The position numbers and the translations under genes were made by a program. This document shows, piece after piece, positions 10,897-37,599 of a DNA stretch of 64,000 nt (position 1 is the stretch's first letter; the number at the start of each line of letters is the position of its first letter). The stretch covers positions 3,744,001 to 3,808,000 of the forward strand of contig CBDCTK010000002.1 in NCBI GenBank assembly GCA_965222225.1. Direction: 5' to 3'. A model generated the notes under the pieces. That model was given only the letters and a program-made list of their open reading frames with translations, searched no databases and was not told the origin of the DNA. Source of the stretch: Candidatus Poribacteria bacterium. GTDB lineage: Bacteria; Poribacteria; WGA-4E; JAJDTR01.

Positions 10897-11053
10897 GGAA
10901 TCTCTATCGATTAACTGAGATCAAAGGAGTGATCAAGTGACCGATTAGTGAACGCGATAGAGATCCTATAGTAAATCCCGTGCGATAGCGATCTTTGATA
11001 GCGAAGGCGGTAGAAAATCCCACTCACTATTCTTTCGTTTGATCGCTCCTACA
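10897..11053. repeat. Multi-level nest of GA-hairpin units inside a minus-strand REP
   Basis: A minus-strand unit is split (10897-10909 and 11021-11044) around about three plus-strand units; GCTCCTACA REP end at 11045-11053. Confidence 0.8.
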
Positions 11054-11242
11054 GATATCCTCTCGGGTTTGTATTTCAATCTTAGCAAACCTTCCCTATT
11101 CCCGTCAATAAAATGCGCATTTCGTTCCAGCACAATCGTCAAAACCCCAATTTCCCGTCTCATCCCCCCGATTTGCGATACGATTCCCTAGCTAGAACGA
11201 AAAAACAAACGAAAAAACAAACGAAAAATAATCCACAATTAG

Positions 11243-11271
11243 TTGACAAAATTCACAAAACTCTGTATAGT
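11243..11271 (+). promoter_or_regulatory. Sigma70-type promoter
   Basis: TTGACA-17 nt-TATAGT, preceded by about three 12-bp A-rich repeats (AACGAAAAAACA). Confidence 0.65.
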
Positions 11272-11479
11272 ACTATTTGATTTGGTGGATGTTTTTCAAT
11301 GACATACGATATCTGGATTATTAACGCGTTAGGCATGTGAAACCGTTGCTAACCGCGTATTTTAGCGTGTCGGTATACAGTATGTAATTTGTGTTTGAAT
11401 ACAATATATACTAGCATCACCCCTCGGTATTTTGTAGTTTCACCGTCCTCCCATATTAAGTATTTTTAAGAGATTTCAG

Positions 11480-12502
11480 ATGACAAAGATTCCGTTCCTC
11501 TTCATCGTTTTGTGGTTTGGCTTGCAATTGGCTCTCCCTCACTCAATTCCAGCACAATCAACTACGGCACAACCAACGAAAGATTCCGCCGAGAAGACTC
11601 AGCCTCTCGACGCCCCCGAAGAGAAACCGGCGAACGACTCGGAGCCGGATAATCAGCCATCAGAAATCGCTCGCAGTGTGGAGGCGAATCAACAGGTTGT
11701 GCAGATTGGTGGAAATTATCACCTCAGTCCCAAGGAAGCTGTCGAGAGTTTGATTGTGATTGGCGGCAATTTGACTCTTCGAGGCAAGGTCAATAACGAC
11801 GTGCTGGTTCTAAAAGGTGACGTTGAGGTGCAAGAAGGGGCAGTGGTTCTAGGCAGCGTTACCACGGTTTTAGGTGAGATTCGGGGAAAGCAGTATCTAG
11901 AGGGTATTCACAGAGAAGTTAACGGCTGGAAGTTTATCCCCGCCTCCGCATGGCTTATCATGCGACCACAGGAGGCGTGGGGAATGGGGAAGTCCGCGAA
12001 ATTTGGGTGGGGCGTGTTGGTGTTCATCGCGCTAACTTTGGTTCACATTACGGTTTATGCCGTATTCCCTCAACGGCTGAATACCATGGCACACGTAATC
12101 TCTCACCGTCCCATAGGCAGCACGCTGCTTGGATTCATAGTGATGATCGTCGCCCCTTGTCTCATAGCGGTGTTGGTGCTTTCAATAGTCGGTATCCCGT
12201 TTGTGCTGTTGTTTATCTCAATTTTGCTTCCGATAGCAATCTACGGCAAGACGGCAGTCTTCCTATCAATGGGGCAAACAATCTTTTCCAACCAACCAAA
12301 GGTTGTGGCAGTGGTTGCGGGCTATTGGATTTATTTCATGGCAACTTCTATCCCACACGTGGGTTTACCCATGTTCCTAGCCGCAAACGCCATCGCAGTC
12401 GGTATCTGTCTCAGGACGGTGTTTGGTCAGAAATCGAGACAGAGCGCCCCTCCGTTCGCTCACCGGCACCCCCTCCTCGACAAATACCGGCAGGCGGATT
12501 AA
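11480..12502 (+). CDS. Membrane protein with signal peptide, bactofilin-like beta-repeat region and C-terminal TM bundle
   Basis: VIGGNLTLRGKVNNDVLVLKGDVEVQEGAVVLGSVTTVLGEI repeats, then several hydrophobic helices. Confidence 0.65.
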   Translation: MTKIPFLFIVLWFGLQLALPHSIPAQSTTAQPTKDSAEKTQPLDAPEEKPANDSEPDNQPSEIARSVEANQQVVQIGGNYHLSPKEAVESLIVIGGNLTLRGKVNNDVLVLKGDVEVQEGAVVLGSVTTVLGEIRGKQYLEGIHREVNGWKFIPASAWLIMRPQEAWGMGKSAKFGWGVLVFIALTLVHITVYAVFPQRLNTMAHVISHRPIGSTLLGFIVMIVAPCLIAVLVLSIVGIPFVLLFISILLPIAIYGKTAVFLSMGQTIFSNQPKVVAVVAGYWIYFMATSIPHVGLPMFLAANAIAVGICLRTVFGQKSRQSAPPFAHRHPLLDKYRQAD

Positions 12503-12601
12503 CCAAGAGCTCGTAGGTTGGATTGAACATAACGAAGCCCAACTCCCTAATTAAAATCTAATTTCTCCACGCTGCGAACCCAACCCAGGAGAGGCATACC
12601 C

Positions 12602-13582
12602 ATGGCACATCACTCGGACGAACTTTTTAGTACGGACGATTGGGTCGAGATTTACAAGACAGGCGACGAGTGGGAAGTTAAGTTAATCGAGGCAACGCTG
12701 CAAAACCAACAGATTCGGTGTCGTCCGGTCTACGATCGAAAGTTGCGTCAAACAACCTTATTTGTTGCGCCGGAACATCAAGTAGATGCGCTTGAGCTTG
12801 TAAGCAGAATTGGCTTGGTCATTACGGATAATCAAAGTACAACACCCCGTTCGGACGAAGATGAGTGGGAGCAAAATCAATCTTCTCACCAAGCGATTGA
12901 TGGCGACAACAATCTACCGGACGCAACGGCTCCCGCCCTTGAGGAGGTTACGGTTGCGGAACGGGAAGGCATCGGAGCGATTATCCACTATATCGGGCGC
13001 GGATATGAGTTGCATGTCGGTCCCGAGCCTTACGTCATTGTTGAAGAGGACCGTTGGGAGGAATTCACCGACCTGAGCGCACAGCGCCAAGAATTCCCGA
13101 TTCTTCTCAGGCATGAATATCCGGAACTTCTCGCATGGCTCAAGTATAAGAAATTGATGGCAGAGTTCATTCGTCTGGTCGAATCCACCTACAGCGAGGT
13201 TCCGCCGCCACGAGGGCAACGCCGCCGTGAGTCAAATCAGTCGCATCCCGCTACCCAACACCCCGAAACCAATTCGGCTGAAGCGAAAGTCCCCCAAATC
13301 GCAAAATTCAGCCTCTGGCTTTCGCTTGTTTCGTTGCTCGCCGCCTTCATCCAATTGCCTTTGTATGCATGCGCCGTGCTTTCCGTGTTGGCAATTGGAC
13401 TAGCGCTGCTCGGGGCATACAGGATTATCACTGAGGACAGCGGGGTTAAAGGAACCCCCGTTGTTCTGATTGCCATAATTCTCGCCCTATTTGCGCTTGC
13501 AGTCGGGTGGAAACAGTCTCAGCCCAGCCCGGTACAACCGGATGCGCGCATTAGGAACGCCGAGTCCGGGACAGCAAAATGA
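12602..13582 (+). CDS. DUF2007-like N-terminal domain protein with C-terminal TM helices
   Basis: WVEIY...EVKLIEATLQNQQI...LFVAPEHQVDALEL pattern; three C-terminal TM segments. Confidence 0.55.
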   Translation: MAHHSDELFSTDDWVEIYKTGDEWEVKLIEATLQNQQIRCRPVYDRKLRQTTLFVAPEHQVDALELVSRIGLVITDNQSTTPRSDEDEWEQNQSSHQAIDGDNNLPDATAPALEEVTVAEREGIGAIIHYIGRGYELHVGPEPYVIVEEDRWEEFTDLSAQRQEFPILLRHEYPELLAWLKYKKLMAEFIRLVESTYSEVPPPRGQRRRESNQSHPATQHPETNSAEAKVPQIAKFSLWLSLVSLLAAFIQLPLYACAVLSVLAIGLALLGAYRIITEDSGVKGTPVVLIAIILALFALAVGWKQSQPSPVQPDARIRNAESGTAK

Positions 13583-13605
13583 TTCTCTGAATCCAAGAAC
13601 ACAAT

Positions 13606-14295
13606 ATGTCCTGCTGCACCATTGTATTTGCCAAGAATCCCGTGCCCGGTCAGGTAAAGACCCGCCTACTCCCTCTCCTCTCGCCCGACCAAGTGGCATC
13701 ACTCTACCGAGCCTTCTTGGTTGACTGGTGTAATGCGCTTTCCTCGCTCCCGACGATCGATTTGGTCGTAGCTTACACTCCACCCGACGGTTTAGGCGAC
13801 CTGAAAACTTTGATTGGAGAGCAGGCGATTTACATCCCCCAAGGAGATTCAGGATTGGGTGAACGGTTAACCGCGGTGTCACGATGGGCTTGCGATCAGG
13901 ACTACGGAACGTTCCTGCTCGTCGGCTCCGATAGCCCAACCCTTCCGATAGCGTACATTCAGCGAGCGATGGAGTTATTGGAATCCCGTGATATTGTCAT
14001 CGGTCCGAGCACGGATGGCGGATATTACCTCATCGGGTTTTCCAAAAGCGGAGCGAACCGCACAATCCCCGTCATATTTCAGGACATTGCGTGGAGCACG
14101 GAGCATGTCCTTAGACAGACACTTGAGAAAGTTGACTCAACCGGCGCACAACTCGGGTTGTTGCCGCCGTGGTACGATGTTGATACGCCATCCGACTTGC
14201 GGTTTTTGCGGGATCACCTGTTTGCCATGCGTCTTGCCGGATGCCGCGCCCCTTTTCCGAGGACAGAACGTGAATTAGAAAAATGGTTGAGTTGA
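13606..14295 (+). CDS. TIGR04282/DUF2064 (CofC-like) glycosyltransferase-fold protein
   Basis: FAKNPVPGQVKTRL, QGDSGLGERL, GSDSPTL, GPSTDGGYYLIG, WYDVDT. Confidence 0.9.
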   Translation: MSCCTIVFAKNPVPGQVKTRLLPLLSPDQVASLYRAFLVDWCNALSSLPTIDLVVAYTPPDGLGDLKTLIGEQAIYIPQGDSGLGERLTAVSRWACDQDYGTFLLVGSDSPTLPIAYIQRAMELLESRDIVIGPSTDGGYYLIGFSKSGANRTIPVIFQDIAWSTEHVLRQTLEKVDSTGAQLGLLPPWYDVDTPSDLRFLRDHLFAMRLAGCRAPFPRTERELEKWLS

Positions 14296-14342
14296 ACAAT
14301 CTGCAATCATCGCTGCGGACGTTGCCTCGGAGGTGTTTATGT

Positions 14343-14717
14343 CTAGTCGGTGTTATCCGCAATTCGTCGTAAGTAGGTTTCGACATCGTCTAAATCGGTT
14401 CCCATCTCGCTTAAGTGGCTTTCAATATCGTATAGATAGCTTTTGCTGCTCCCAGACTTGCTTTCGATACTGTTTAACGTACTTTCGATACTACTTAAAT
14501 TGCTGTTGATACTGTTCAAGGTACTTTGGATACTGCTTAAGCTGCTTGTGATGCTGCGCAAGTAGCTTTCGATTTCGGAACTGGGAGCGGGTAGGTTGTA
14601 GTCGGTATTGGGTTCGCCCGATTCACTGGCGGTGTACAGTGTGAATACCCCAAACAGGAAACAAGATATGATAACGGAGACTAGGACGAAGGATCCGTGT
14701 TTCTTGATCTCGGACAT
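14343..14717 (-). CDS. Membrane-anchored Ser-rich heptad-repeat hypothetical protein
   Basis: AGGAG SD, N-terminal TM, heptads LSSIQST/LNSINSN/LSSIEST/LNSIESK. Confidence 0.7.
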   Translation of the reverse strand: MSEIKKHGSFVLVSVIISCFLFGVFTLYTASESGEPNTDYNLPAPSSEIESYLRSITSSLSSIQSTLNSINSNLSSIESTLNSIESKSGSSKSYLYDIESHLSEMGTDLDDVETYLRRIADNTD

Positions 14718-14859
14718 GATAGATTCTCCTTTTTATGTACGGCAGCGCTCAGCGTTGCCGGGGGTTAATCTATGGCTATACTTCACTATTGGGGATTGTT
14801 GGATATTGGGAATTGTTGGATGAATCAGAAGGAGGTGGCTAGTGAAATGAAATGCTTAA

Positions 14860-15246
14860 GAGCCTGTTTGAAAAGTACAGTTTGTAGGGTGCGATCAAAC
14901 GAGTGGATAGCGAGTGCGATAGCTAATCCCGCGCGATAGAAATCCCATAGAAATCCTGCACCATTTCTTGTATGGTGCGATCAAAGGAATGAATAATGAC
15001 TGCGATAGAGATCCCCTTCGATTAAGTGACCGAATAGGGAACGCGATAGGGATCCTACCAGCCTTTGTGAGCCCCAGCGTGGGATCAAACGAGCGAATAG
15101 CGATCAAGCGACTGAATAAGGAGCGCGATAGAAATCCCGTGCGATAGAAATCCTGACAGGTGTATAGCAGGCGACCACAAAAGCATGAAAAAGCCGCACC
15201 CAAAGTGACCAAAAATCGCTTTGCCACCTATTATTCAATCAGGCTC
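14860..15246. mobile_element. MITE with IS5-family-like termini carrying five GA-hairpin units
   Basis: TIRs GAGCCTGTTTGAA / TTCAATCAGGCTC, flanks TAA/TTA; right ~190 bp homologous to the copy at 46797-47167. Confidence 0.75.
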
Positions 15247-15314
15247 TTAGTAAATGCCGTGCGATAGAGTCCCTGCTAGAAACAGCTATGTTTTTGGGGT
15301 AACTACAACCAGTT

Positions 15315-15689
15315 TCAGCGCTCTCTGACCTGAGCGTCGTAGATAAGGAACTCCGTAATCTGACTGGCAGTTTTAGGTGTCAATCCCGAGCCGGGCTTTC
15401 TCATCATGTGCTGCACATACTTCTTCCACTCCTCTGCCGTGAAGGCAGAGTTGATGGGGCGGGCAACCGTATGACACCGGCTGCATTTGTTTGCGAACAG
15501 TTGGTAGTATTCCCGTATCTTGGGAGGATAGCCTGAGACATCAACGTAATTTTGCCCCTTATCGGCGGGATACGTCTTGAGAGTTGCTTGGGGTATTCGG
15601 AGCATTCCGATGACTATGGCGACCATCAAGCCAAGCACAATCAAGACGGTTATCCAAACCACGAGTTGACCCATCCGTCGGTATCCCAA
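15315..15689 (-). CDS. Membrane-anchored monoheme c-type cytochrome
   Basis: N-terminal TM, CSRCH, WKKYVQHMMRK with candidate distal Met. Confidence 0.8.
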   Translation of the reverse strand: MGYRRMGQLVVWITVLIVLGLMVAIVIGMLRIPQATLKTYPADKGQNYVDVSGYPPKIREYYQLFANKCSRCHTVARPINSAFTAEEWKKYVQHMMRKPGSGLTPKTASQITEFLIYDAQVRER

Positions 15690-15692
15690 TCG

Positions 15693-16178
15693 TTACGCTT
15701 CCGCTTTTAGCGTTTCCACGCGTCGTTGGGCAGCCATTCCCAGATAGTGATAATCAAAATCTTTCACGAGCTTCCCAAATTGTTTTATCGCCTTATTGCG
15801 CTGTCCAAGTTTATTGTGGGATTCTGCTAACCAGTAAAGACACTTAAGGAGCGTCGGGTTCGGGTTTTCGTCACTCCCCGCTTTTGCGGATACGCCGTGT
15901 CTCTTCTCGTATGCAATAGCGGCTTTGAATTTCTTTACCGCGTTCTCGAAATCGCGGTGCTCATGGTATGCTTGGAAAGCTTGGTACAGGTTGAGATTGT
16001 CGCTATTGTCACGGAGAAATTCCAGATTATCAGCGACTTCTTCTAAAGCGTACTCTCCGTCATCCGCCTCATCTGGTTGTGTCTCATCTGGTTGTGTCTC
16101 ATCTGGTTGTGCCTCAACTGGTTGTGCCTCAACCAGTTCTTGATCGTCTTGCAACTCAGCCATTTCAATCTCCTTCAT
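15693..16178 (-). CDS. TPR protein with acidic N-terminal 5-aa repeats
   Basis: EAQPV/DETQP repeats (15-bp units); LYWLAESHNKLGQRNKAIKQF TPR motif. Confidence 0.7.
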   Translation of the reverse strand: MKEIEMAELQDDQELVEAQPVEAQPDETQPDETQPDEADDGEYALEEVADNLEFLRDNSDNLNLYQAFQAYHEHRDFENAVKKFKAAIAYEKRHGVSAKAGSDENPNPTLLKCLYWLAESHNKLGQRNKAIKQFGKLVKDFDYHYLGMAAQRRVETLKAEA

Positions 16179-16257
16179 AAAGGTTTTGTTGTTGATTTAG
16201 TATACCAAACATACGACCGAATCGCAAATCATAAAACTCCCTCAAGCAACTGGATGT

Positions 16258-16523
16258 TGTAGGAGCGATCTCCAGGTCGCGATTCCGTAGAACCAAACGT
16301 TGTAGGAGCAATCAAGCGAGTGGATAGGTCAAGCGAGCGAACAGCGACCACGATAGCAATCCCCCTCCCGGTCGCGACCCATCAACGAAGCGGATAGTAA
16401 TTATAGGGTGCGATCAAAGGAATGAATAATGACTGCGATAGAGATCCCCTGCGATCAAGCGACTGGATAAGGAGCGCGATAGCTATCCCATGCGATAGAG
16501 ATCTTAGTGCGATAGAAATTCCC
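16258..16523 (+). repeat. REP/GA-hairpin mosaic at left island border
   Basis: Two GTAG REP heads plus about five units. Confidence 0.8.
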
Positions 16524-16783
16524 TAGCCATCCTCCCCTTCCCCCCAAACCTCATTACAGACCCAACCCCATTTCCCATTGGCAATTCCCCGGCACCTATG
16601 CCATAATCTCACACTGCGACCATGTTGAACATGTTCGGATTGAATTATGAAAACAGAAACTTACTAACATTCACCGTAGGAGCCAACCATGAAGACAAAA
16701 TTTATAATATTGATATGTACACTAACTTCACTAAGGTTGAAAAATCCCTGAGCTACATGCCAAATGTAAGAGGTGGCTCTACG

Positions 16784-17644
16784 ATGTCTAAGAAAACGGG
16801 AAACGCAGCACAGGAGAACCACGGAGACGAACAGTCTCGTAAATACATGCTAGAAATTGCCGGCAGCGGTGGTGGCAGTGTAGCAGGTGCGTATTTGGGA
16901 TTACTAGTCGCCGGTCCAGCCGGAGTTTTGGTGGGAGCATTGTGCGGGGGCGCGGGAGGTAAGGTCATTGAAATTGCGTTGAGGGTAGTTTTCCAAGAGA
17001 TTTGGGCGCGACAGTTGAGCACGCCAGAGAGAATGCGCGTAGGTACTGTGCTTGACGTCGTGATTGCCGAAATACGCCGGCGTATAGAAGCTGGTGAAAG
17101 TGTACGCATGGATGGCTTCTTCGACGAGAAACAAGCGGGCAGACCCGATGCAGAAGAAGTTGCGGAGAGCGTGCTATTGAAGGTTCAGAGAGAGCCGGAA
17201 GAAATGAAACTCCCGTACATGGCTTATTTTCTTTCAAGCATCGCCTTCAATCCGGAAATCAGCGCACAAATGGCACACCAACTCACAAAGATCGCCGAGC
17301 AACTTACCTACCGACAATTATGCATTCTTAAGCTCTCTGTCGTGAAAGATGAATATGGGCTGCGTGGCAAAGACTACCGGGATCATGATGATTTCGGAAA
17401 AGACCTCTATCCGGTACTTTACGAGTGTGCTGAACTTTATAACAAGGAATATATTAACTTCGGGGGTGAAGCGAATTTTCATATCGGGGAACATATGGAT
17501 TACGGCGCTACAATTCACCGACTTACGAGGGCAAGACCTGACCAGATGACCCTCCAAGGCATAGGTGCAGATCTTTTCAATCTCATGAAACTGTCTTTGA
17601 TACCGAAGAAAGATATAGCCCCAATTGCCGAGCAGTTAAAGTAA
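16784..17644 (+). CDS. Hypothetical protein, weak Abi-alpha/DUF4393-like resemblance
   Basis: Gly-rich hydrophobic N-terminus, EEMKLPYMAYFLSS...IAEQLTYRQLCIL; GAGGT SD before ATG at 16784. Confidence 0.5.
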   Translation: MSKKTGNAAQENHGDEQSRKYMLEIAGSGGGSVAGAYLGLLVAGPAGVLVGALCGGAGGKVIEIALRVVFQEIWARQLSTPERMRVGTVLDVVIAEIRRRIEAGESVRMDGFFDEKQAGRPDAEEVAESVLLKVQREPEEMKLPYMAYFLSSIAFNPEISAQMAHQLTKIAEQLTYRQLCILKLSVVKDEYGLRGKDYRDHDDFGKDLYPVLYECAELYNKEYINFGGEANFHIGEHMDYGATIHRLTRARPDQMTLQGIGADLFNLMKLSLIPKKDIAPIAEQLK

Positions 17645-17970
17645 AACGACATTGGACAACAAGGTTTCGGGCAGCGATGTGACATTATTCTCCCGGAAAG
17701 GTATTGTGCAGATTCCAACCTACATCCACCACATTCTCCTCTAAACACTGCTCGTGCGTTCACTTGTTAAATGGACATCCCCTGAAAGTGAAGGAGTTTT
17801 TCTCAGAGTGTGTAAGGACTAATGGTGACGACAGCTCTTTTACTGGACGCAGGCAAATGTACTTTGCCTATGCGGCGTTTGTCGGACGCCCGCGAGCGCT
17901 ATTCGCCGTGCACCAAATGTAATCCGCCGCAGTAAGAGAAAAGTATCTTGAGAAAAGGAGTTGAAAGCGA

Positions 17971-18507
17971 ATGATAAGCGAAAGGGAAAGCACTTTGGCA
18001 CGAGAGACATATCTGCTAGAAGGATACAAAGATTTAAGCAGATGGAACATCCAAGAGGATGGAGCTTTGATCAATCTTGATAGATTCCTGATAACGGCAT
18101 CGGTAGGGGCATGCCTATTGACATTAGTGAAAGCGCGTGAAGCCTATCCAGCCGTATATTTGGGCAGCGGGTTGGTGCTCTATTTCTGGCTGTTACTATC
18201 TATCCGATATAAAGCCAGAATTAAGCACAGGTTTCTCTTAATGCATGAAATAGAAAAACAGTTACGCTTCAGTGCACATATGGACTATGATTCCGCGAAG
18301 TTGACATACGAACTCGTCTTTCCCCGTAAGAGCTCGAATTGTAAGCGAGAAGAATGTAAGTCGAAAGTACTGCCAACCGATATAGAGATAAGACGACGTT
18401 TCTTCTTCGGTTATTTGATAGTTATGTTCCCAGCTGTAATAAAAGGAATAGAGGCACTACCAAATCTCATGGGCAATCTGCCCATTCTCCAGATAATATC
18501 GGGGTGA
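17971..18507 (+). CDS. Hypothetical membrane protein (2+1 TM)
   Basis: AAGGAG SD; two N-proximal TMs, a charged segment and a C-terminal TM. Confidence 0.65.
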   Translation: MISERESTLARETYLLEGYKDLSRWNIQEDGALINLDRFLITASVGACLLTLVKAREAYPAVYLGSGLVLYFWLLLSIRYKARIKHRFLLMHEIEKQLRFSAHMDYDSAKLTYELVFPRKSSNCKREECKSKVLPTDIEIRRRFFFGYLIVMFPAVIKGIEALPNLMGNLPILQIISG

Positions 18508-18579
18508 GGGCACTACGGGGTGTTTGACGCCTGCTCCAAATCGAGTTCCTAGGAATCCCTAGATACTCTTTATTTCAAT

Positions 18580-18726
18580 GAGGAAATGATGACACGATTT
18601 AAGGAAATGATGACACGATTTAAGGAAATGATGACACGATTTAAGGAAATGGTGACACGATTTAAGGAAATGGTGACACGATTTAAGGAAATGGTGACAC
18701 GATTTAAGGAAATGGTGACACGATTT
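18580..18726 (+). repeat. 7 x 21-bp tandem repeat AAGGAAATG(A/G)TGACACGATTT
   Basis: Seen directly; units 1-3 ATGATG, units 4-7 ATGGTG; no spacers. Confidence 0.97.
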
Positions 18727-18981
18727 ATTGTTTACCGCCCCATACTCACTCTGATTGTAGTTGCTGAAATCTATCTAATTTACTCCGGGTTGGGTGGTGC
18801 AGGTAGTCTGAAATCAGAACCAGAATACAAAGTCATCAGTGACACCGATCACACAGTCGTAGAGAGTAGTTTGGAAAAGTGGGCGAGAGAGGACTATGAG
18901 TTACTTCAGATTTCTACTTGTTGTACGCACGAAAAAGCGATAACGTATACTATTGTGTTGAAAAAGAAAAGCAACTGGTAG
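18586..18981 (+). CDS. Small membrane-anchored protein with (MMTRFKE)n N-terminus
   Basis: Repeat, TM helix, then a small EYKVI...LEKWAREDYELL domain. Confidence 0.6.
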   Translation: MMTRFKEMMTRFKEMMTRFKEMVTRFKEMVTRFKEMVTRFKEMVTRFIVYRPILTLIVVAEIYLIYSGLGGAGSLKSEPEYKVISDTDHTVVESSLEKWAREDYELLQISTCCTHEKAITYTIVLKKKSNW

Positions 18982-19096
18982 CTAAATCTCACACACGCAG
19001 TGAATGTCAAAAACGCTGTAAATTGCCTCGGATTGGTAAATCGCCTAGAAGGCAGGGTTTGGAAAACCTCTGCGATTTTTACAATAGGGGAAGGCA

Positions 19097-29462: not shown

Positions 29463-29939
29463 TTGACGGCAATAAAGTGTTACACGGTTACCTTGGTTAG
29501 GATTGTATATAAGCCCCACAAATCGCGCGGATTAGTGTGCATTGAGCTTGGTCGGCCGGAAGAGGCTATCGACGACTTTAACAAGGCGCTACAGTTAAAT
29601 CCAGATGACGCCGAAACACTCGTCAGTCGTGGATGGGCTCAATTCTGCCAGGGCGAACATGACCACACCGTTCAAGATTATAGCACAGCGATGGAACTAA
29701 AGCACGGTTGGTCGAGATCCTATTGCAATCGCGCGCTCGCGTTTATGCATCTGCAAAAATGGCGCGACGCCAGGTCCGACCTCACAACAGCCAAGAACCT
29801 CGGTATGAACATTGTGGCGATGTCTCATGAACGATACCCCACCATCTCCCACCTAGAACAAGAGATCGGCGCAGCCGTACCCGAAGACATCGCTAACATG
29901 TTGGGGTACTCCCAATCGCCAGGTGAGACCTCCAACTAA
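29463..29939 (+). CDS. TPR protein, probably 5' truncated
   Basis: RGLVCIELGRPEEAIDDFNKALQLNPD and two more TPRs; no convincing start. Confidence 0.6.
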   Translation: MTAIKCYTVTLVRIVYKPHKSRGLVCIELGRPEEAIDDFNKALQLNPDDAETLVSRGWAQFCQGEHDHTVQDYSTAMELKHGWSRSYCNRALAFMHLQKWRDARSDLTTAKNLGMNIVAMSHERYPTISHLEQEIGAAVPEDIANMLGYSQSPGETSN

Positions 29940-29942
29940 TCC

Positions 29943-30164
29943 GATCAACCGAGTGGATAATGAGCGATCAACTGAACGAATAGTGAAGGCGATAGAAAGT
30001 CCTGATAGAGATCCCTTAATCAGCGATTCAGACAATCTCCTTACCTCCCCATTTACCCCTCCCTACCCCCTGACCATCAAGCAAGCGGATAGCGATCAAC
30101 CGACTGAATAAGGAGGGATCAAGTGAGTGAATAGCGAACGCGATAGAACTCCCATGGAGATCCC
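29943..30164 (+). repeat. Nested GA-hairpin clusters (about five units)
   Basis: Units at 29943/29966 and 30076/30094/30117. Confidence 0.85.
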
Positions 30165-30223
30165 ATTCGGACAATCTCCCTCCACTTCCCACGCTCACCC
30201 CAATGTTAAAAACATATTAACAC

Positions 30224-30252
30224 TTGACAAATCCGCCCTAACATGATATAAT
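30224..30252 (+). promoter_or_regulatory. Perfect consensus sigma70 promoter with extended -10
   Basis: TTGACA (30224-29), 17 nt, TG-n-TATAAT (30247-52). Confidence 0.85.
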
Positions 30253-30400
30253 GTGCCACAGTTGCTCTTCGCAAGCATTGGCCCAAACAAGCGACGGAGC
30301 ACGACGAGCAAGCGAGCGGATAGTGAGTGCGATAGTTGATCTCTCGGGATAGTAAATCCCCCAAACACGAACCGCGCTGAACTAAATATCACAATTTTCC

Positions 30401-30461
30401 AGCCCAATGGAGGCTTTCTTTGATGTCTATCAACAGAAAGCCTCCATTGGGCTTTTTTTTT
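30401..30461 (+). terminator. Strong intrinsic terminator
   Basis: 19-bp perfect stem AGCCCAATGGAGGCTTTCT/AGAAAGCCTCCATTGGGCT followed by a T run. Confidence 0.85.
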
Positions 30462-30577
30462 GGTAGTCGTGGCTGGCCGTAAAACTCCGGTGGTTAGTGA
30501 TCAGTAGCGCCAAGAGAATATCTTGGTTCTTACTGGACACTAGCCACTGCCCACTGCTTTATATGGAGAGTTAGAAT

Positions 30578-31108
30578 ATGTGCGAAACAAACGAAACACT
30601 CAAAATCTCACACGAAGACCACCTAGATGGAATAGTGAACCGCGTCTACGAAAGCTGGGGGACCTCGCAGATTGTTGATTCCTGGATGGAGAAATATCCC
30701 CGGTGGGCGCATCTTGGTCGCAAGATATTTCGAGATGCCGCACGCGTTTCTAATCCTCGGTCTAACAAATTTTCAACCGAATACCGCAAAATATATGAGC
30801 GCACATTAGCGCACTATCGTGAAGAACGCCGCGCACTACTCGAAGCCACGGCTGTCAAGGCTTCAAGCGCAATTTCGGAGATTGTTGAAAGTGTGCGCTC
30901 AAACGTTCCCAACGTCCCTATTGAAAACGCCCACGACCTGCTTCATCTCTCGCGCGTAATCAATCCCCTTAAGGACATCGTGCTCAAGGCCTCACAAGAG
31001 ATAGATCATGACCATAGTAACTCCCATGCCCGTAATACTAACCGAGATGCAGTCGATCGGCTGCTCCGCTACAAAGACTTGGCTGACGAACTCACGGAAG
31101 ATGAATGA
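30578..31108 (+). CDS. Hypothetical helical protein, positional terminase small-subunit candidate
   Basis: GGAG SD; stop overlaps the TerL start (ATGAATGA). Confidence 0.55.
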   Translation: MCETNETLKISHEDHLDGIVNRVYESWGTSQIVDSWMEKYPRWAHLGRKIFRDAARVSNPRSNKFSTEYRKIYERTLAHYREERRALLEATAVKASSAISEIVESVRSNVPNVPIENAHDLLHLSRVINPLKDIVLKASQEIDHDHSNSHARNTNRDAVDRLLRYKDLADELTEDE

Positions 31109-32804
31109 TGATGAAGCGTTCTGCCAACTCAGAGCCCATGCCGGCTACGTCTACCCCGATCTCTTTGTCGATTACTACATCAGAAACACCAGCTACCAAC
31201 TGCTCGCGCTCAAAGATTTCCACATCGAAATCCTCAACGCCATCAAACCAGGCGTGTACGGTAAGCAAATAAACGTCCAAGCACCGCGCGGCACCGGCAA
31301 GACGACCCTCGTTAACGGTCTAATCCCTCTTTGGAGGATCTGCTACAAACACTTCGATCTCGCCATGGACAGGCAACCCGAAGAATTCATCCTCATTGTC
31401 AGTCGCAACGAACCCATGGCGTGCCAACGCATAACCGAAATCCGCCAAGTCCTTGAACGCAATCCCCTCATCCGCCAAGATTTTGGCGACTTGGTCGGCG
31501 ATGTGTGGGCGAAAAAAGAGACCGACACCAAGAACGGAATCGCGCTCCGTCCGTTGGGTCGCGGTTCGTCACCTCGTGGTGCGCTGATTGGCGATGTTCG
31601 ACCGACGCTGAAACTGTGCGACGACATTGAAGACCCAAAACGCTGCCTCAATCCCAACCTCCGAGAAGAAGACAGGGACTGGTTCATGACCGACTTCATG
31701 TACGCCGGCGACCTCGGCAGCAAACACTCCAACACCATCATCGTCGATACCGTAAAACACCCCGAATCCCTTTCCGAACACCTCCGCGCCCTCCCCGGTT
31801 GGCGGACGCTGCGCTACCAAGCCGTCCGTTATCCCAAAGACATCTACCACCCCACCGCCGAACGCCTCTGGAAACAGTGGGAACGCGTCTACAGCGACAC
31901 CACCCTCAACGACGACGAACGCGAAGAGAACGCGAATGCGTTCTACGCGAAACATCAAGATGAGATGTCCGGCGGCGTGAAGATGTTGTGGCCGGAAAAA
32001 CTGTCGTACATCCACGTTCGCAAAGAGATTCTCGAACGCGGCTATCACCGCGTCATGCGCGAACTCCAAAACGACGCGCGCGACCCCGCGATGTCGCTCT
32101 TCAAGATGAATCAGGCCGTCACCTTCTCCGTCATCGAGGAAGGCTTTCGCCGCAGCGACGGGCATGTGGTTCCGTGGCACGATATTGGCGGATTCACCAC
32201 CTACCTCGACACCATGGGCGGACGCGATGCGCTTGCCAATAGCTACGCCTGCGCTGTCGTCGTTTGGGAGCCGCTGCCCGGCGGCGGATCCATGAACCCC
32301 GACTCACTCTCCGGCGTGAACGGATATATCCTGTCGGCGTGGATGGATCGCGTCGCATTGACCGAGCAGATGGAGAACGCCATCCTCCTCGCACAGCGCG
32401 CCGAGGCGATGTTGGCGCCCGCGTATCCCAAATCCCACTTCGTTTGCGAACAGCGGCCTGACAAAGACGGCACCATCAAGATGTCAACCGACCACGCCTT
32501 CCGTACGATGAAAGAGCGCTACCGCTTTGAACGCAGAATCATGTATCACAAACAGCACCAGAACAAAGAAGATCGAATCGGTACGCTTGAACCCGCGATA
32601 GCCAATGGATGGCTCGCGCTCAACGAGCAGGACTTGCCCGGCGAGTTCTGGACGCAGTTCAGGCAATTCCCCTCCGCCGATCACAACGACGCGCCCGACG
32701 CCGTGCAAGGCGCTTGCCGCTCTCGCATCACGACCACCGCGCAGCAGCGGGTAAACTTGTCCGCCGCCCGCAAATTCCACCGCAACCTCGTCGTGAGACT
32801 GTAA
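31101..32804 (+). CDS. Phage terminase large subunit
   Basis: Walker A APRGTGKTT, RGA...RPTLKLCDDIED Walker B, LWPE, RELQND, nuclease YLD and HNDAPDA. Confidence 0.85.
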   Translation: MNDDEAFCQLRAHAGYVYPDLFVDYYIRNTSYQLLALKDFHIEILNAIKPGVYGKQINVQAPRGTGKTTLVNGLIPLWRICYKHFDLAMDRQPEEFILIVSRNEPMACQRITEIRQVLERNPLIRQDFGDLVGDVWAKKETDTKNGIALRPLGRGSSPRGALIGDVRPTLKLCDDIEDPKRCLNPNLREEDRDWFMTDFMYAGDLGSKHSNTIIVDTVKHPESLSEHLRALPGWRTLRYQAVRYPKDIYHPTAERLWKQWERVYSDTTLNDDEREENANAFYAKHQDEMSGGVKMLWPEKLSYIHVRKEILERGYHRVMRELQNDARDPAMSLFKMNQAVTFSVIEEGFRRSDGHVVPWHDIGGFTTYLDTMGGRDALANSYACAVVVWEPLPGGGSMNPDSLSGVNGYILSAWMDRVALTEQMENAILLAQRAEAMLAPAYPKSHFVCEQRPDKDGTIKMSTDHAFRTMKERYRFERRIMYHKQHQNKEDRIGTLEPAIANGWLALNEQDLPGEFWTQFRQFPSADHNDAPDAVQGACRSRITTTAQQRVNLSAARKFHRNLVVRL

Positions 32805-32828
32805 CGGCTACTACCCGATGTGGGAGGA

Positions 32829-33535
32829 GATCAAACGAGTGAATAGCGAGTGATCAAAGGAATGAATAATGACTGCGATAGTCAATCCTGATAGAAATTC
32901 TTTTATCTTGCCCCGATTAACCAAGCAGCCGTCAACTGACTGGACAAGGAAGGCGATTGTTGTAGGGTGCGCACTGCGCACCAGCCTTTTGTTTCTGTCG
33001 TATGATAGCACATTCCTTGCAACAGAAATCCCCGCCAACGCTTCAACCGATTTATAGTCGGGTCATCTTGCCCCGATTAACAGAGGTGCATTTAACCGAG
33101 ACTATGTGTAGGAGCGATCTCCAGGTCGCGATTCCATAAACCCAAACGTTGTAGGAACGTTCAACTGACTGAACAAGGAAGGATCAAGCGAGTGGATAAC
33201 GAGCGCGATAGAGCCCAAGGCGATAGCTGATCCCGATAGAGATCCTGCACCAGCCCTTGGTTTCTGTCGTACGATAGCAAATCCTGATAGTGAATCCCGA
33301 TACAAAATCCCGTGCGATCAAGCGACTGGATAAGGAGCGATCAACTGAGCGAATAGTGAAGGCGATAGAAACTCAGGATAGAAATTCCTCACGCGACACG
33401 TATCAGGGGATCAAAGGAATGGACAATGGCTGCGATAGAGATCCCTTAATCCGCGATTCAGACAATGCGATAGAGTCCTTATAGACGTCTTCTACCGGTC
33501 ACCGCTTCCTGTCGCGAGCAGCGCTCGCTTCTACA
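32829..33535 (+). repeat. Large REP/GA-hairpin mosaic at right island border
   Basis: About eight units, an uninterrupted REP at 32962-32986, and REP heads at 33107 and 33150. Confidence 0.85.
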
Positions 33536-33598
33536 ACTCTGTCTCGCGTCGCGAGAAATCAACTGTGTGTTGCGTCTTGCTCAAACGCATATTTTTTG

Positions 33599-33687
33599 TT
33601 GCAAACAATATAGATCTGATATATAATTTAACCTGCTTCAATTTGCAAACGGCTTCTCAATATCCGATTTTGTGAAGTTTTTCACAA
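33599..33687 (+). promoter_or_regulatory. nuo promoter plus Rex-type operator
   Basis: TTGCAA-17-TATAAT (33599-33627); TTGTGAA-GTTT-TTCACAA (33670-33687) matches the Rex consensus. Confidence 0.75.
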
Positions 33688-33711
33688 TCACTTGGAAAGA
33701 TAGCAGGGACA

Positions 33712-34116
33712 ATGTTTTTTAACTTCGCAAATGTACTGATTTTCCTTATCGTCGGTTCCGTTTTCGTGGCGCTGAACCTCGCCGTGTCTCGCCTGCTTCA
33801 AACGAAACTTTTCATGGAGGAGAAATTTATCCCGTATGAGTGTGGAGAGGATCCGATTGGCGATACGCGCATCAAGTTCAATACCCGCTTCTATGTCATT
33901 GCCCTCATTTTTTTGATTTTCGACGTTGAGGTGGTATTCCTGTTTCCGTGGGCGGTTGTTTTCCGCGGAATCGGTCTGCTTGCGTTTGTCGAGATGTTAA
34001 TCTTCATCGCCGTGCTGCTGGTTGGACTCGCCTACGTTTGGGCGAAGGGGGATCTTGAATGGATTCGTTCGATTCAGCAGGAGATTCAGGAAAAGCGTGA
34101 AGAAACTGAAGCCTAG
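33712..34116 (+). CDS. nuoA: NADH-quinone oxidoreductase subunit A
   Basis: [28 protein letters not shown]. Confidence 0.97.
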
Positions 34117-34139
34117 CCGGGCGCGGAGGACGATTCGCT

Positions 34140-34730
34140 ATGATTTTTGATGAGAAACTTGACAAAAACATTTTCGTCACATCTGTGGACGCCGTTGCGA
34201 ATTGGGCGCGGGCTTCCTCATTGTGGCCCATGACCTTCGGACTGGCATGTTGCGCGATTGAGTTTATGGCAACGGCGGCTTCCAACTATGACCTGGATCG
34301 GTTTGGGGCGGGCGTCCCGCGTGCGACTCCACGGCAATCGGATCTGTTGGTGATTTCCGGCACCGTCACCCTGAAGATGGCAACGCGAATTAAGCGGCTC
34401 TACGAACAGATGCCCGAACCCAAATACGTAATCTCGATGGGGAGTTGCGCCACGAGTGGCGGTCCCTACTGGCAGCACGGTTATCATGTGCTCAAGGGCG
34501 TCGATAGAATTATCCCTGTTGATGTCTATGTGCCCGGTTGTCCTCCTCGTCCCGAAGCCTTGATCGAAGGCTTGCTGAAGCTCCAGGAGAAGATTAAAAC
34601 ACAAACCGTCGCCAAGCGGTCGTACATTCCGTTCCTGCGAAGGCTCTATACCAAAACCGATCTTGAGGATCAAGAGATTGCGGCAGCGGTGGAGGAAGGC
34701 GCCGAGGAGAAGGAAGAAGCGACTAGCTGA
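34140..34730 (+). CDS. nuoB: NADH-quinone oxidoreductase subunit B
   Basis: [23 protein letters not shown]. Confidence 0.97.
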
Positions 34731-34809
34731 CAAACACCCCGAATGAAGCGCGAAAGGAGAGTTGCAACGCAATAGGTTGGTTTCCAGTTCCAAATGCGTT
34801 GATTTATCT

Positions 34810-35292
34810 GTGACATCGGAAGAAATTTACACAAAACTCAAAGGGGTGTTTGGAGACTCTGTCCTGTCCATTCAGGAGGTCGTTCTAGATTCGTTTATCC
34901 TCATCGCACCCGAGGCAATCGCCGAGATTGCCCGTTTTCTCGCCGAAGATAGCGAGTTGGCGTTCGATTCGTTGATGTGCTTAAGCGGGGTTGACTTGAG
35001 CATTAAAGAATCGAACCTTGAAATCGTCTACCATCTCTTCTCAATGACCCACCGTCACACAATCGTCCTTAAAGTTAACCTACCCAAGGAAGATCCGCAC
35101 ATTCCCTCCGTCGAAGATATCTGGAAGACAGCAAATTGGCACGAGCGGGAAGCGTACGATCTCTACGGAATAACCTTTGAAGGACACAGTGATCTGCGGC
35201 GAATCCTGATGCCGGAGGACTGGGAGGGGCACCCGTTACGCAAGGATTACAAGGATCCCGAATTCTATCGGGGGATGCGCGTGCCGTATTGA
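34810..35292 (+). CDS. nuoC: NADH-quinone oxidoreductase subunit C
   Basis: ANWHEREAYDLYGITFEGH, GHPLRKDY; GTG start assumed. Confidence 0.93.
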   Translation: MTSEEIYTKLKGVFGDSVLSIQEVVLDSFILIAPEAIAEIARFLAEDSELAFDSLMCLSGVDLSIKESNLEIVYHLFSMTHRHTIVLKVNLPKEDPHIPSVEDIWKTANWHEREAYDLYGITFEGHSDLRRILMPEDWEGHPLRKDYKDPEFYRGMRVPY

Positions 35293-35322
35293 TGAATGAG
35301 GATTGCTGTTGCGACTCCTATT

Positions 35323-35384
35323 GTAGGGTGGGATCAAGGGAGCGAATAGCGAATAGCGACTGCGATAGAGATCCACCGCCCACC
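35323..35384 (+). repeat. REP interrupted by a GA-hairpin unit
   Basis: GTAGGGTGG[unit]CACCGCCCACC versus the uninterrupted form at 1512. Confidence 0.85.
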
Positions 35385-35619
35385 ATTCCTTATTGAAGAG
35401 GTAAACCACCACTATTTGGGAACGTTTTGTGATATTGACTGCTGGTTCGTCAATACCTTAGGAAGAAATTATAGGCTTGCCGACGGATTAACTAATCGGG
35501 AATCACCAACACGAAATAGTTGTGTTTTTTCCTCAATGAATCGCCGAGCTACGAAGCCAAGAGGCCTCAACCGCCAAAGTCGCAATGTTATTATTCCTTG
35601 TTTCCGAAAGGAGAATATC

Positions 35620-37314
35620 ATGGTGCGCAAAACATCATTAATCGCTATTTTACTATGCCTAACCCTTCTTCTGCTGGGAAGAACCGCCGTGGCCAACATC
35701 CTTACGACCGAAGAGATTGCCGAGAAGGCGCTAAGTGCGACAGTTCTGCTAACGATGAGAGATGCGGACGATAGAGTAATCGGATATGGGAGCGGATTCT
35801 TTGTTTTACCGAATGTTATTGCAACCAACTTTCACGTGATTGAAGGTACACACCGAGGCACCGCCCGTCGCGTTGCTCAAAACAAATCGTATACCCTCAA
35901 ACAGCTTCTTAAGAGCGATGAAAAACAAGATTTGGCGCTGTTCGAAGTATCAGCTCCGGATGTCGAACCGCTTCCCATCGGCGACAGCGGTAGTAGGTCG
36001 TTACGAATCGGCGCGACAGTTTATGTTGCCGGTAATCCGCTGGGTTACTGGTGGGGGACCTTCTCCGAGGGTATTGTTAGCGCCCGTCGAAGTTGGGATG
36101 ATGGAGTGGAGAGGTTACAGATGACAGCTCCGATTTCGCCCGGAAACAGTGGCGGCCCCGTACTTAATAACAGAGGCGAAGTAATAGGTGTTTCCGTCGC
36201 ATCAAGTTCAGATGACAGGGCTCAAAATATCAACTTCGCCGTTCCATCTAGCGAACTCAAGAAACTCGTCGCAGAATTGAATCCCCCGACTGTGAGCCTT
36301 GTTCTCCCTCGGCGATCGAATTGGAATATTGGCGACACAGTTGATGTTTCTCTTAAAATCGACAACGGGACGGACATTGCAGGTTTTCAGGTAACCGTAG
36401 GATTTGATGGTTCCGTTCTTAAATATGTGGAGGCTTTGAAGGGTGATTACATCCTCAGAGGGGATGAGTTCGCACGTAAAATAGACGGCGAAAATCAGGT
36501 GACATTGGCGGCAACGGGCTTCCCCCAGGTAATGGATGACGATGGCGTACTTGCTGTAATTAAGTTTGAAGTTACTGCTTTCAAGCCTTATGGATGGGTA
36601 CTATCCGACCTAATTCTGTCCCGAGCGATTCTCGTGAATCCAGATGGAGGTCGTTCATATCCTCTTGTATCTCATGCGAAGGTATGGGCGCGCCCACTGG
36701 GATTCCAAGAAGATGTAAACGGTGATGGTGATGTAAATATTCTGGATTTACGATCTGTTTTCACCAATTTTGGGGTCCGGGGGAGGAATCATGCGGATGT
36801 CAATAAAGATGGTGTCGTTGATGTCGTTGATTTGGTAAGGGTTGCCTCTGCCATACACACTCCTCTGGGAGCTCCTCCATTCGCTCAAGAAGTTCTTGCG
36901 GGATTCACTGCCACAGAGCTGAAGCAATGGTTGACACAAGCCTCGCAGCTCGGTCTGACGGATCCCACTTCGCTGAAAGGCATTTTCGTTTTGGAGCAAC
37001 TCCTCAAAACATTCGTCCCGAAAGAGACGGCGCTGTTACCCAATTTTCCAAATCCCTTCAATCCGGAGACATGGATTCCGTACCACCTCGCCAGTGCCTC
37101 CGACGTGCAGATTGCGGTATACAACACAAACGGCGCGATGGTACGTCAATGGGACTTGGGACATCGAGAAGCTGGATTCTACACCGATAGAAGCAACGCC
37201 GTATACTGGGACGGACGTAATCGACACGGCCAGTTTATCGCAAGCGGCGTTTATTTTTACTCGTTAACTGCCGGTGATTTTACGGCTACCAGGAAAATGA
37301 TAATCGGAAAGTAA
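35620..37314 (+). CDS. Secreted trypsin-like serine protease with cohesin, dockerin and FlgD/T9SS-like C-terminal domains
   Basis: Signal peptide, TNFHV / DLAL / PGNSGGP triad, cohesin-like beta domain, DVNGDGDVNILDL + DVNKDGVVDVVDL, LLPNFPNPFNPETWIPY...ASGVYFY. Confidence 0.85.
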   Translation: MVRKTSLIAILLCLTLLLLGRTAVANILTTEEIAEKALSATVLLTMRDADDRVIGYGSGFFVLPNVIATNFHVIEGTHRGTARRVAQNKSYTLKQLLKSDEKQDLALFEVSAPDVEPLPIGDSGSRSLRIGATVYVAGNPLGYWWGTFSEGIVSARRSWDDGVERLQMTAPISPGNSGGPVLNNRGEVIGVSVASSSDDRAQNINFAVPSSELKKLVAELNPPTVSLVLPRRSNWNIGDTVDVSLKIDNGTDIAGFQVTVGFDGSVLKYVEALKGDYILRGDEFARKIDGENQVTLAATGFPQVMDDDGVLAVIKFEVTAFKPYGWVLSDLILSRAILVNPDGGRSYPLVSHAKVWARPLGFQEDVNGDGDVNILDLRSVFTNFGVRGRNHADVNKDGVVDVVDLVRVASAIHTPLGAPPFAQEVLAGFTATELKQWLTQASQLGLTDPTSLKGIFVLEQLLKTFVPKETALLPNFPNPFNPETWIPYHLASASDVQIAVYNTNGAMVRQWDLGHREAGFYTDRSNAVYWDGRNRHGQFIASGVYFYSLTAGDFTATRKMIIGK

Positions 37315-37449
37315 CTTGGACTGCAAGACAGGCACAGACCGGGGTAATCGCACCAGACTCCAAACCCGAGCTTGGATAAGTGGTGCTTTCAAATCATTAC
37401 ACTGTTGACGAAACGCTAATATTGAGAAACACAATCGAGCGGATTTATT

Positions 37450-37483
37450 ATGGCAGCGCCACAACTTGAAAGCAAATTCATAG
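37450..37483 (+). repeat. 34-bp exact copy of the nuoD 5' end
   Basis: ATGGCAGCGCCACAACTTGAAAGCAAATTCATAG also at 39649-39682. Confidence 0.95.
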
Positions 37484-37490
37484 TACAATT

Positions 37491-37599
37491 GTAGGGTGGG
37501 ATCAAGGGAGATCAAGCGACTGAATAAGGAGCGATCAACTGACTGGTTAAGGAAGGCGATAGTAGATCCTGATAGAAGATCCCGTGCGATAGAGATCCC
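37491..37599 (+). repeat. REP head plus triple-nested GA-hairpin units
   Basis: Three GATCAA heads followed by three GATAG tails. Confidence 0.85.

Follow-up and report, generated by a model that had tools for sequence, protein, structure and literature searches.

The stretch of DNA analyzed here, referred to as the window, comprises 64,000 nucleotides (nt) of a Candidatus Poribacteria bacterium, a symbiont of sponges (assembly GCA_965222225.1, contig CBDCTK010000002.1, positions 3,744,001 to 3,808,000 of the forward strand). It is punctuated by copies of a short non-coding repeat, hereafter called the unit, which are inserted into one another and into repeats of other families. The consensus of the unit reads G/ATCAA NN GA NN GRATA NN GA NN GCGATAG ARATCC, where the slash marks the junction between a host G and a module of about 35 nt. 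The pattern GATCAA NN GA NN G NN TA NN GA NN GCGATAG, followed by ARATCC(C), was searched for with at most two mismatches; it matched the window at 24 places (23 on the plus strand) and 100 shuffled versions at none. Over the whole assembly (5.70 Mb in two contigs, 50% G+C) 1006 copies were obtained, with lengths ranging from 35 to 37 nt. On a rough map of open reading frames (ORFs), 59 of 1003 units are located inside long ORFs and the remainder lie between ORFs. At least four other repeat families of the repetitive extragenic palindrome (REP) kind reside in the same genome, with instances in the window at 1513-1545, 32965-32990 and 33108-33135. These are REP-A, a GTAG-type repeat present in 157 intact copies (GTAGGGTGCGCACTGCGCACCAGCC, also written GTAGGGTGSGCACTGCSCACCAGCC with a covarying S), REP-B (GTAGGAGCGATCTCC...GTCGCGA), the hairpin repeat REP-C (GCCCCAGAGGGGCGACAGGTG) and REP-D (GTAGGTTGGGTTGAAC).

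The nested clusters and REP-associated units of the window are collected in Table 1. An initial annotation, made from the sequence alone, had described such clusters as units placed inside other copies of themselves, and all the nests that it cited are present in the sequence. It had also described a minus-strand unit split around several plus-strand ones. The two halves of this unit do bracket 111 nt of plus-strand unit material, which includes an intact unit at 10931-10966 and inner layers so degraded that they were parsed by eye. The same locus is an empty site in three relatives, and the window carries about 290 extra bases there. Within the cluster ending at 15153, the split AC...GT stem of the host is restored beyond the insert. 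The nest at 30094-30163 is preceded by an additional left half to which no right half corresponds. A further locus, 37500-37599, had been read as a triple nest. The inner and middle units are indeed clean, and the third host is incomplete: it is represented by a short left-hand piece at 37500-37509 and by the right half at 37582-37599, lacks positions 10-20 and has unpaired stem bases. The three-level nest at 42939 falls outside the range 10897..37599 covered by that annotation.

Table 1. Nested and REP-associated units in the window (positions counted from the first base of the window)
Feature	Position	Strand	Parts	Remarks
Two-level nest	1587..1656	+	host 1587-1610 / 1647-1656, insert 1611-1646	after host G23
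Split minus-strand host unit	10896..11044	-	halves 10896-10909 and 11021-11044	broken at the G23/C24 step
Four-unit cluster within REP-A and REP-C sequence	14893..15153	+
Nest within the preceding cluster	15083..15153		host 15083-15103 / 15139-15153, insert 15104-15138	after host G19/A20, zero host loss
Units within a REP-A copy	16412..16530	+		orthologous REP-A intact in G005
Two-level nest	29943..30014	+	host 29943-29966 / 30004-30014, insert 29967-30003
Two-level nest	30075..30163	+	host 30094-30117 / 30154-30163, insert 30118-30153
Two-level nest	32829..32900	+	host 32829-32852 / 32890-32900, insert 32853-32889
Two-level nest	33316..33387	+	host 33316-33339 / 33377-33387, insert 33340-33376
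Clean two-level nest with additional host pieces	37500..37599	+	nest 37510-37581, insert 37534-37570	3 mismatches
Three-level nest	42939..43058	+	two 23-nt left parts, one full unit, three right halves	parsed by eye
Units in REP-A (46938) and REP-C context	46844..47090	+		degraded nest at about 47004-47085

The variable positions of the unit covary as two blocks of two base pairs. Counting Watson-Crick and G.T pairs over the 1006 copies, positions 6-22 are paired in 94.8%, 7-21 in 93.8%, 10-18 in 96.4% and 11-17 in 96.6%; the values obtained upon shuffling of the columns are 52%, 52%, 50% and 79%, respectively. G8A9 stands opposite G19A20 between the two blocks, and the loop is closed by G12 and A16. 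All four pairs are intact in 850 copies, which display 91 different fully paired combinations. G.T or T.G cells (438) are far more common than A.C or C.A cells (about 56), which indicates that the strand as written is the one that folds, either as DNA or as RNA. The termini of the unit add a complementarity of 5 bp (GGATC/GATCC), contributed in part by the target G. Fold-back synthesis was considered as the origin of the complementarity and ruled out, since GA is opposed to GA within the stem. The variable pairs make use of limited alphabets: positions 6 and 10 are never T, position 7 is never A and position 11 is either C or T. As a result, the tandem G.A is mostly enclosed, genome-wide, in pyrimidine-GA-purine contexts (positions 6, 7, 10, 11, 17, 18, 21 and 22), a context known to favor sheared G.A pairs in DNA.

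In order to describe the clusters over the entire genome, each unit was reduced to a left half (L; GATCAANNGANNG, at most one mismatch) and a right half (R; ATAG, 2-3 nt, [AT]TCC). Looser half-tokens were swamped by chance matches and were dropped. Among the 100 clusters made of two left and two right halves, 75 display the order LLRR, 21 the order LRLR and 4 are not balanced, the share of LLRR expected from random order being 1/6. All 19 clusters with three halves of each kind form balanced words, 8 of them LLLRRR. The distances separating successive left halves (n = 461) are concentrated at 23 nt (163), 19 nt (67), 12 nt (64), 17 nt (55), 18 nt (27) and 10 nt (20), six values that account for 396 of the total. 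The peaks of the right-to-right distances (11, 13, 17, 24 and 28 nt) match these left-half values. The clusters are thus organized as nests rather than as tandem arrays. The preferred position of insertion announced by the initial annotation proved to be a set of discrete sites, mostly in the 3' arm, rather than one site.

When the sequences bordering each intact unit were searched directly for host halves, with up to two mismatches, 164 of the 1006 units proved to have one on either side. Exchanging right flanks among units as a control produced 84-91 matches; this control is inflated, because many flanks are themselves halves located at a shared preferred site, and a shuffle of split stems was used in its place. 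Recursive collapse of the innermost units in both orientations yielded 215 insertion events in 735 loci. The 998 top-level units that remained had a depth of 1 in 807 cases, 2 in 171, 3 in 19 and 4 in a single case. These figures are a lower bound, as illustrated by the clean nest at 37510-37581, which requires three mismatches and was missed. At least 215 of the approximately 1000 copies reside inside units, although units amount to about 0.6% of the genome. Host and insert lie on the same strand in 186 of the 215 events and are inverted in the other 29; both orientations occur in 65 of 225 multi-unit loci. The combination of host and insert variants is distinct in 157 of the 164 nests, so that most of them represent independent events.

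Such figures leave an extremely small probability to the formation of the clusters by slippage or tandem duplication of adjacent sequence. The LRLR order in 21 of 100 two-pair clusters is what such a process would produce, and the right halves of class-A nests do resemble an 11-nt tail repeat. Duplication would however predict LRLR or unbalanced words where LLRR prevails, and it leaves the complementarity of split stems across the insert unaccounted for. Its prediction that neighboring units should be identical failed: host and insert carry the same variant in 0 of 164 pairs. Their agreement at variable positions amounts to 30.7%, which is lower than that of random pairings (38.9%, range 34.9-43.7). 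Slippage was rejected on this basis.

The variable positions played no role in the detection of the nests and can be used to examine the stems interrupted by an insert. Of the 77 hosts with an interrupted outer stem, 59 have halves that remain complementary to each other at both pairs; in 2000 shuffles the mean was 34.5 and the maximum 44, none reaching the observed value. The restoration of outer stems beyond chance had been set beforehand as a check of the nesting proposal, which holds. Restricted to non-redundant combinations, the count is 56 of 73, and for split inner stems it is 17 of 23 (shuffled 12.6, maximum 16). The inserts themselves are better preserved than their hosts: 149 of 164 inserts retain all four pairs, compared with 94 of 154 hosts (Fisher p = 2e-10). 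The deficit persists when only hosts with unsplit stems are counted (53 of 79 intact). Paired inserts within decayed hosts indicate that the hosts are older and that they decayed after being interrupted. The pattern argues that pairing is a condition for copying rather than the mark of a function exerted at each locus. Pairing under selection for copying bears on the debate as to whether REP-like repeats are selfish or useful.

The 5' junction is sharply defined. In all cases the module is attached directly 3' of a host G, itself preceded by C or G in 87% of the copies. Within a host unit, G23 is the most frequent landing step, followed by G17-19, G12 and G10. No less than 26 of the 29 inverse nests are located at G23/C24, a step that reads G/C on the opposite strand as well. 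The 3' junction is variable. With the G counted as host, the loss per event (n = 215) is 0 nt in 66 cases, 1 nt in 58, 2 nt in 54 and 3-5 nt in 35. In these 213 events q-p is >= 0, i.e. there is no target duplication; the remaining two resemble duplications of 2-4 nt. The absence of target duplication proposed initially is confirmed by these counts. The accompanying statement that inserts replace 2-3 nt is acceptable when the host G is considered as replaced; with the G retained, 66 events lose nothing and 147 lose 1-5 bases.

REP copies are entered in the same manner. Units fill REP-A at GTGCG/CAC (60 copies) and at CTGCG/CACC (20 copies), the intact REP-A representing the empty state. Of the 20 rows at the latter site, 9 show the sequence G + ATCAA...ATCC (or ATCT) + CACC, in which a 35-nt module is inserted with neither loss nor duplication; in the other 11 the host C is replaced by T or the continuation differs. 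Defined G steps were found in at least five unrelated repeat contexts, namely REP-A (two sites), REP-B, REP-C, REP-D and the unit itself, and no fixed target word longer than the G step emerged. A target resembling a restriction site (GATC, or GCG/C) was dropped since these words are absent from most host sites. For 68% of the units, at least one flanking 13-mer is repeated four times or more in the genome, against a background of 4.3%; the flanks of the remaining units are mostly degraded pieces of REP or unit, as judged by eye. The module prefers other hairpin repeats, itself included.

This association with repeats may also be viewed the other way round. The unit could be cargo carried in the loop or stem of REPs mobilized by REP-associated tyrosine transposases (RAYT), with spreading by gene conversion and nests arising through recombination between units. 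Beyond the enrichment of repeated flanks, one variant (AG-AT-A-AT-CT, 55 copies) occurs mostly at a single REP-A site, so that this composite was probably amplified as a whole, and unit and REPs have a common orientation bias. The number of distinct pairs among the nests (157 of 164) runs counter to this explanation. Moreover, G steps in five or more unrelated contexts would require insertions that are independent of flank homology, and the bias in orientation described below is the same for units devoid of GTAG within 25 nt upstream. Transport as cargo is therefore judged quite unlikely.

Comparison of loci with and without a unit provides direct views of the insertion. Two Y1 loci, L104 (empty) and L105 (filled), have matching flanks of over 100 nt to either side of the site, which consists of 2 nt in the former and 37 nt in the latter, again with no target duplication. 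This was the only change of a bare module in an all-against-all megablast comparison of 145 loci, which returned 52 indels and 5 rows containing a unit. The REP-C copy downstream of a Y1 gene is filled by a unit in the present genome (G000) and in G001 and G005; it is empty in G002, G004, G009 and in other genera. An 80-kb stretch of G005, the closest relative as regards the window, was also aligned with it. Its genes are 82-97% identical and the intergenic repeats are almost wholly different; the two host-level comparisons that could be used show an intact REP-A where the window has units and a REP-B ortholog that holds a different unit. Logan contigs from unit-bearing samples stop at repeat clusters, and the short sides of the joints listed (20-52 nt) fit other copies. 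Nests of this kind break short-read assemblies and drive a fast turnover of intergenic sequence between sister species.

The distribution of the unit was established over 41 genomes, with at most one mismatch and a reversed-pattern control that returned 0 in all of them. All nine other genomes of the genus contain the unit, in 567-1262 copies each (866 in G000 under these settings), as do the four genomes of one genus from another family, in 194-205 copies each. Three copies were found in one further genome and none in the 26 others. The signature of nesting at site 23 is present in the 13 other unit-bearing genomes (32-233 per genome; 119 in G000) and absent from 15 genomes without units. Nesting at a preferred site is a property of the family and not an artefact of one assembly. 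Taken with the restored stems, the diversity of host and insert combinations, the decay of hosts and the empty site, these 13 genomes provide good support for the repeated, site-selective insertion without target duplication that had been proposed.

The orientation of the units is linked to replication. Counted by locus, units on the plus strand are found under negative rather than positive GC skew in a proportion of 228 to 92, and those on the minus strand under positive rather than negative skew in a proportion of 176 to 88 (odds ratio 0.20, p = 3e-20). The bias persists for units that have no GTAG within 25 nt upstream. GC skew correlates positively with gene bias (r = 0.41) and is thus of the usual sense. 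REPs share the polarity of the unit, with odds ratios of 0.13 for REP-A, 0.08 for REP-D and 0.44 for REP-B; for the unit as for the local GTAG REPs, the folding strand is the C-rich one. We read this bias as the result of a DNA-level, replication-linked process common to the REPs, and as the main indirect support for a single-strand mechanism of the HUH type. On the larger contig (C2, 5.6 Mb), the sign of the skew, in 200-kb bins, flips many times and the orientation of units and REPs tracks each patch. These patches point to many inversions, or to assembly joins carrying both signals.

The orientation data also bear on the possibility that the folded form is RNA, the motif being either selected in place or spread through an RNA copy and reverse transcription. 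Covariation tolerant of G.T, tandem G.A and a loop closed by G...A are features typical of RNA motifs, and the unit possesses all of them. Unit orientation has no relation to local gene-strand bias (p = 0.53 by locus) and little relation to the strand of the flanking genes (in tandem-gene contexts, 341 units share it and 291 are on the opposite one). The decay of interrupted hosts argues against a function kept at each locus, and a search of Rfam returned no family matching the unit. Only a slim probability is thus attributed to RNA.

The insertion of modules into earlier copies is considered sound; the machinery responsible is a matter of interpretation, with evidence on both sides. The explanation that we favor, with confidence evenly divided for and against, is that the clusters were built by a module of about 35 nt that repeatedly entered its own earlier copies as well as the four REP families of the genome, the module being moved in trans, as single-stranded DNA, by an HUH enzyme. 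The module would travel as single-stranded DNA at the replication fork. The mover would be a tyrosine HUH enzyme (Y1: RAYT or IS200-like) of the kind that serves the co-resident REPs, and hairpin repeats, the unit among them, would be preferred targets owing to an exposed (C/G)G step, with joining 3' of the G.

Candidate enzymes are present. Five matches to Y1_Tnp were obtained in the genome: one intact IS200-like gene, one RAYT broken by a TAG codon, one RAYT-like protein of 247 aa scoring below the family cut-off and two fragments. The intact IS200-type protein (157 aa; L081:1384-1857, minus strand) scores 65.8 bits against NF033573, for which the cut-off is 55. Genes of this type are flanked by inverted copies of REP-C or close variants at 14 of 14 loci in four genera. 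Intact RAYT genes occur in relatives, for example at L116-L122. In these relatives, the REP families are each associated with a particular class of RAYT or IS200-type Y1 gene, which they border in inverted orientation; RAYT proteins scoring about 130, 180 and 200 bits are flanked by REP-B, REP-A and REP-D, respectively. These statements are derived from a set of 44 Y1/RAYT loci (L102-L145); flanks were read at 14 loci of the IS200 type and at 7 of the RAYT type, and a motif scan covered 30 RAYT loci. The IS200-type gene (G000:C2:3078872-3082216, locus L081; also L103-L115) is conserved in at least four genera and is matched one to four times per genome, in part by fragments. Although scored as IS200 and not as RAYT, it behaves like a RAYT in being bounded by inverted REP-C.

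The initial annotation had favored HUH-type chemistry on account of the missing target duplication. The strand-specific pairing, the skew bias shared with GTAG REPs and the presence of Y1 genes add to this argument; the want of a Y1 gene flanked by the unit as its own repeat and the ragged 3' junction detract from it, and this part of the proposal has indirect support at most. Several observations weigh against the mechanism favored above. Insertion by IS200/IS605 elements is exact at the junctions. Here, 147 of the 215 events lose one to five host bases at the 3' side, and the strand polarity of the unit is opposite to that of IS608. Within the 44-locus set, the unit is never the conserved flanking repeat of a Y1 or RAYT gene and is present only as an insertion. 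Its ends match no end of a full-length insertion sequence (IS) in the genome, where the sole intact IS200-type gene is bounded by REP-C, and a search of the genome for TnpB found none. The L081-type Y1 occurs in genera without the unit (g6 7/7, g3 5/10), and the query used returned no match to it in 2 of the 4 unit-bearing g4 genomes. Nearest-neighbor DNA folding energies of units and nests do not improve on those of shuffled sequences (z from -1.08 to +1.37), so that the predicted structure of the unit is founded on covariation and not on predicted stability. Finally, 369 of the 790 multi-token clusters are unbalanced, an imbalance that stems partly from the stricter right-half token and partly from degraded or truncated hosts.

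The ragged junction would also be compatible with copy-choice, or template switching, during replication, a process that dispenses with a dedicated transposase. Stalled at a hairpin repeat, a nascent strand whose end is G or GA would re-anneal to the start of another unit, copy it to the foot of the terminal stem and return through a microhomology of C or CC. The junctions and the module do have 1-4 nt in common (G12A13 and G19A20 of the host correspond to G0A1 of the unit, and the REP-B site begins at its own GATC). The small and variable loss of host bases without duplication, the use of other hairpin repeats as targets, the orientation linked to replication rather than transcription and the excess of same-strand over inverse nests (186 vs 29) would follow as well. 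On the other hand, about 1000 copies per genome in 14 genomes, with a sharp 5' end and a near-constant length, are at odds with the variable ends usual for copy-choice. The pairing retained by inserts and lost by hosts suggests that a folded module is recognized, and hosts and inserts are less alike than random pairs whereas switching guided by homology would favor like pairs. Copy-choice is therefore held to be unlikely.

Beside transport in trans by an HUH enzyme, a more novel reading may tentatively be proposed. The unit would be a hyperparasite of REP-RAYT systems, shorter than 40 nt and without a transposase of its own, relying either on bacterial enzymology of an undescribed kind (hairpin-recognizing cleavage 3' of G followed by imprecise rejoining) or on the RAYT bound to the REP that it enters. 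If this were true, the 91 stem combinations would be lineages of selfish replicators evolving within other selfish repeats.

Other features of the window and of its relatives were recorded in the course of the analysis. The YibE/F-family gene (8044-10638) has relatives 90-93% identical in metagenome-assembled genomes of Candidatus Poribacteria. In other Poribacteria genera (L010, L014, L018, L036, L050 and others), orthologous sites upstream of this gene are either occupied by a different hairpin of about 36-43 nt (GCCGCAGCTTGCAAGGCAAAACTTGC type) or devoid of it; it seems that small mobile hairpins are common throughout the phylum. A T-box leader on the minus strand (6317-6570; Rfam RF00230, 93.5 bits for a gathering score of 93) is located upstream of ORF 5253-6275. 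A GmrSD-type restriction endonuclease gene (37797-39617) lies in a stretch that does not align with the syntenic region of G005, where the intergenic space contains a different repeat, of the GCGCTCCAGCGGAGCGCAATGTC type. An ORF of 598 aa (31008-32804), devoid of any Pfam match, belongs to a multi-copy family with DNA copies 76-87% identical elsewhere in G000 (e.g. G000:C2:4167557-4170285) and in all relatives of the genus.

Among known systems, the REPs and REPINs mobilized by RAYT resemble the unit in being short, mostly extragenic hairpin repeats of several hundred copies, and local REPs share its orientation bias. The unit differs from them by the absence of a GTAG or CGTC tag (the consensus ends being 5' GATCAA and 3' GCGATAG-ARATCC), by not being the flanking repeat of any Y1 gene examined and by its insertion into REPs. 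It occurs in single copies and same-strand nests instead of inverted doublets, although doublets of fixed spacing were not searched for. A literature query on REP and RAYT returned no bacterial paper with the phrase 'nested insertion' among the matches listed, and one on REP in Poribacteria found only unrelated material.

Transposition of IS200/IS605 elements is devoid of target duplication, hairpin-dependent, strand-specific and site-selective, and its orientation is tied to replication. The unit is alike in all these respects; it differs in being one 35-nt hairpin without distinct left and right ends, in its ragged 3' junction, in its opposite polarity and in the lack of TnpB. Elements of the IS1397/ISKpn1 type insert into REPs. 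Di Nocera et al. 2013 (PMC3733652) refer to REPs located inside palindromic targets. Palindromic repeats thus serve as landing sites in these cases as in ours, with the difference that the present invader is itself a non-coding hairpin of 35 nt that also enters its own kind. A miniature inverted-repeat transposable element is a poor match, the terminal complementarity being limited to 5 bp and target duplication being absent.

The closest parallel is found in cyanobacteria. Elhai and coworkers are said to have described, in 2008, eight families of tiny mobile repeats (SDR1-8) in Nostoc punctiforme and relatives, reportedly with a shared hairpin backed by compensatory changes. Two of these families are reported to be nested in their own copies, with lengths of 21-27 nt, and no enzyme is said to have been assigned to them. 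To our knowledge, these tiny cyanobacterial repeats are the only described case of self-nesting, and we know of no enzyme that moves them or the Poribacteria unit. PMC4390886 mentions that SDR5 was inserted between the third and fourth bases of HIP1, and the SDR work of Elhai is cited in PMC3116915 and PMC3733652. The unit resembles SDRs in its very small size, its non-coding and mobile nature, its covarying hairpin, its self-nesting and its insertion at an exact step of another repeat. It differs by its occurrence in Poribacteria, its length of 35-37 nt, a seemingly unrelated sequence built around tandem GA and its GTAG-type REP hosts. Unlike the SDR setting, the Poribacteria genome is not enriched in HIP1 (117 copies). 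Orientation bias relative to the replication strand, host decay compared with inserts and single-base hot spots are features of the unit that are not known for SDRs.

The unit works most like an SDR and may work like a hairpin mobilized by an HUH enzyme; it is assigned to neither. How the smallest bacterial repeats move is the question left by the SDRs, and the unit offers clean material to address it: single-base insertion sites, an order of events in which the host is older than the insert, a polarity tied to replication and candidate Y1 enzymes in the same genomes.

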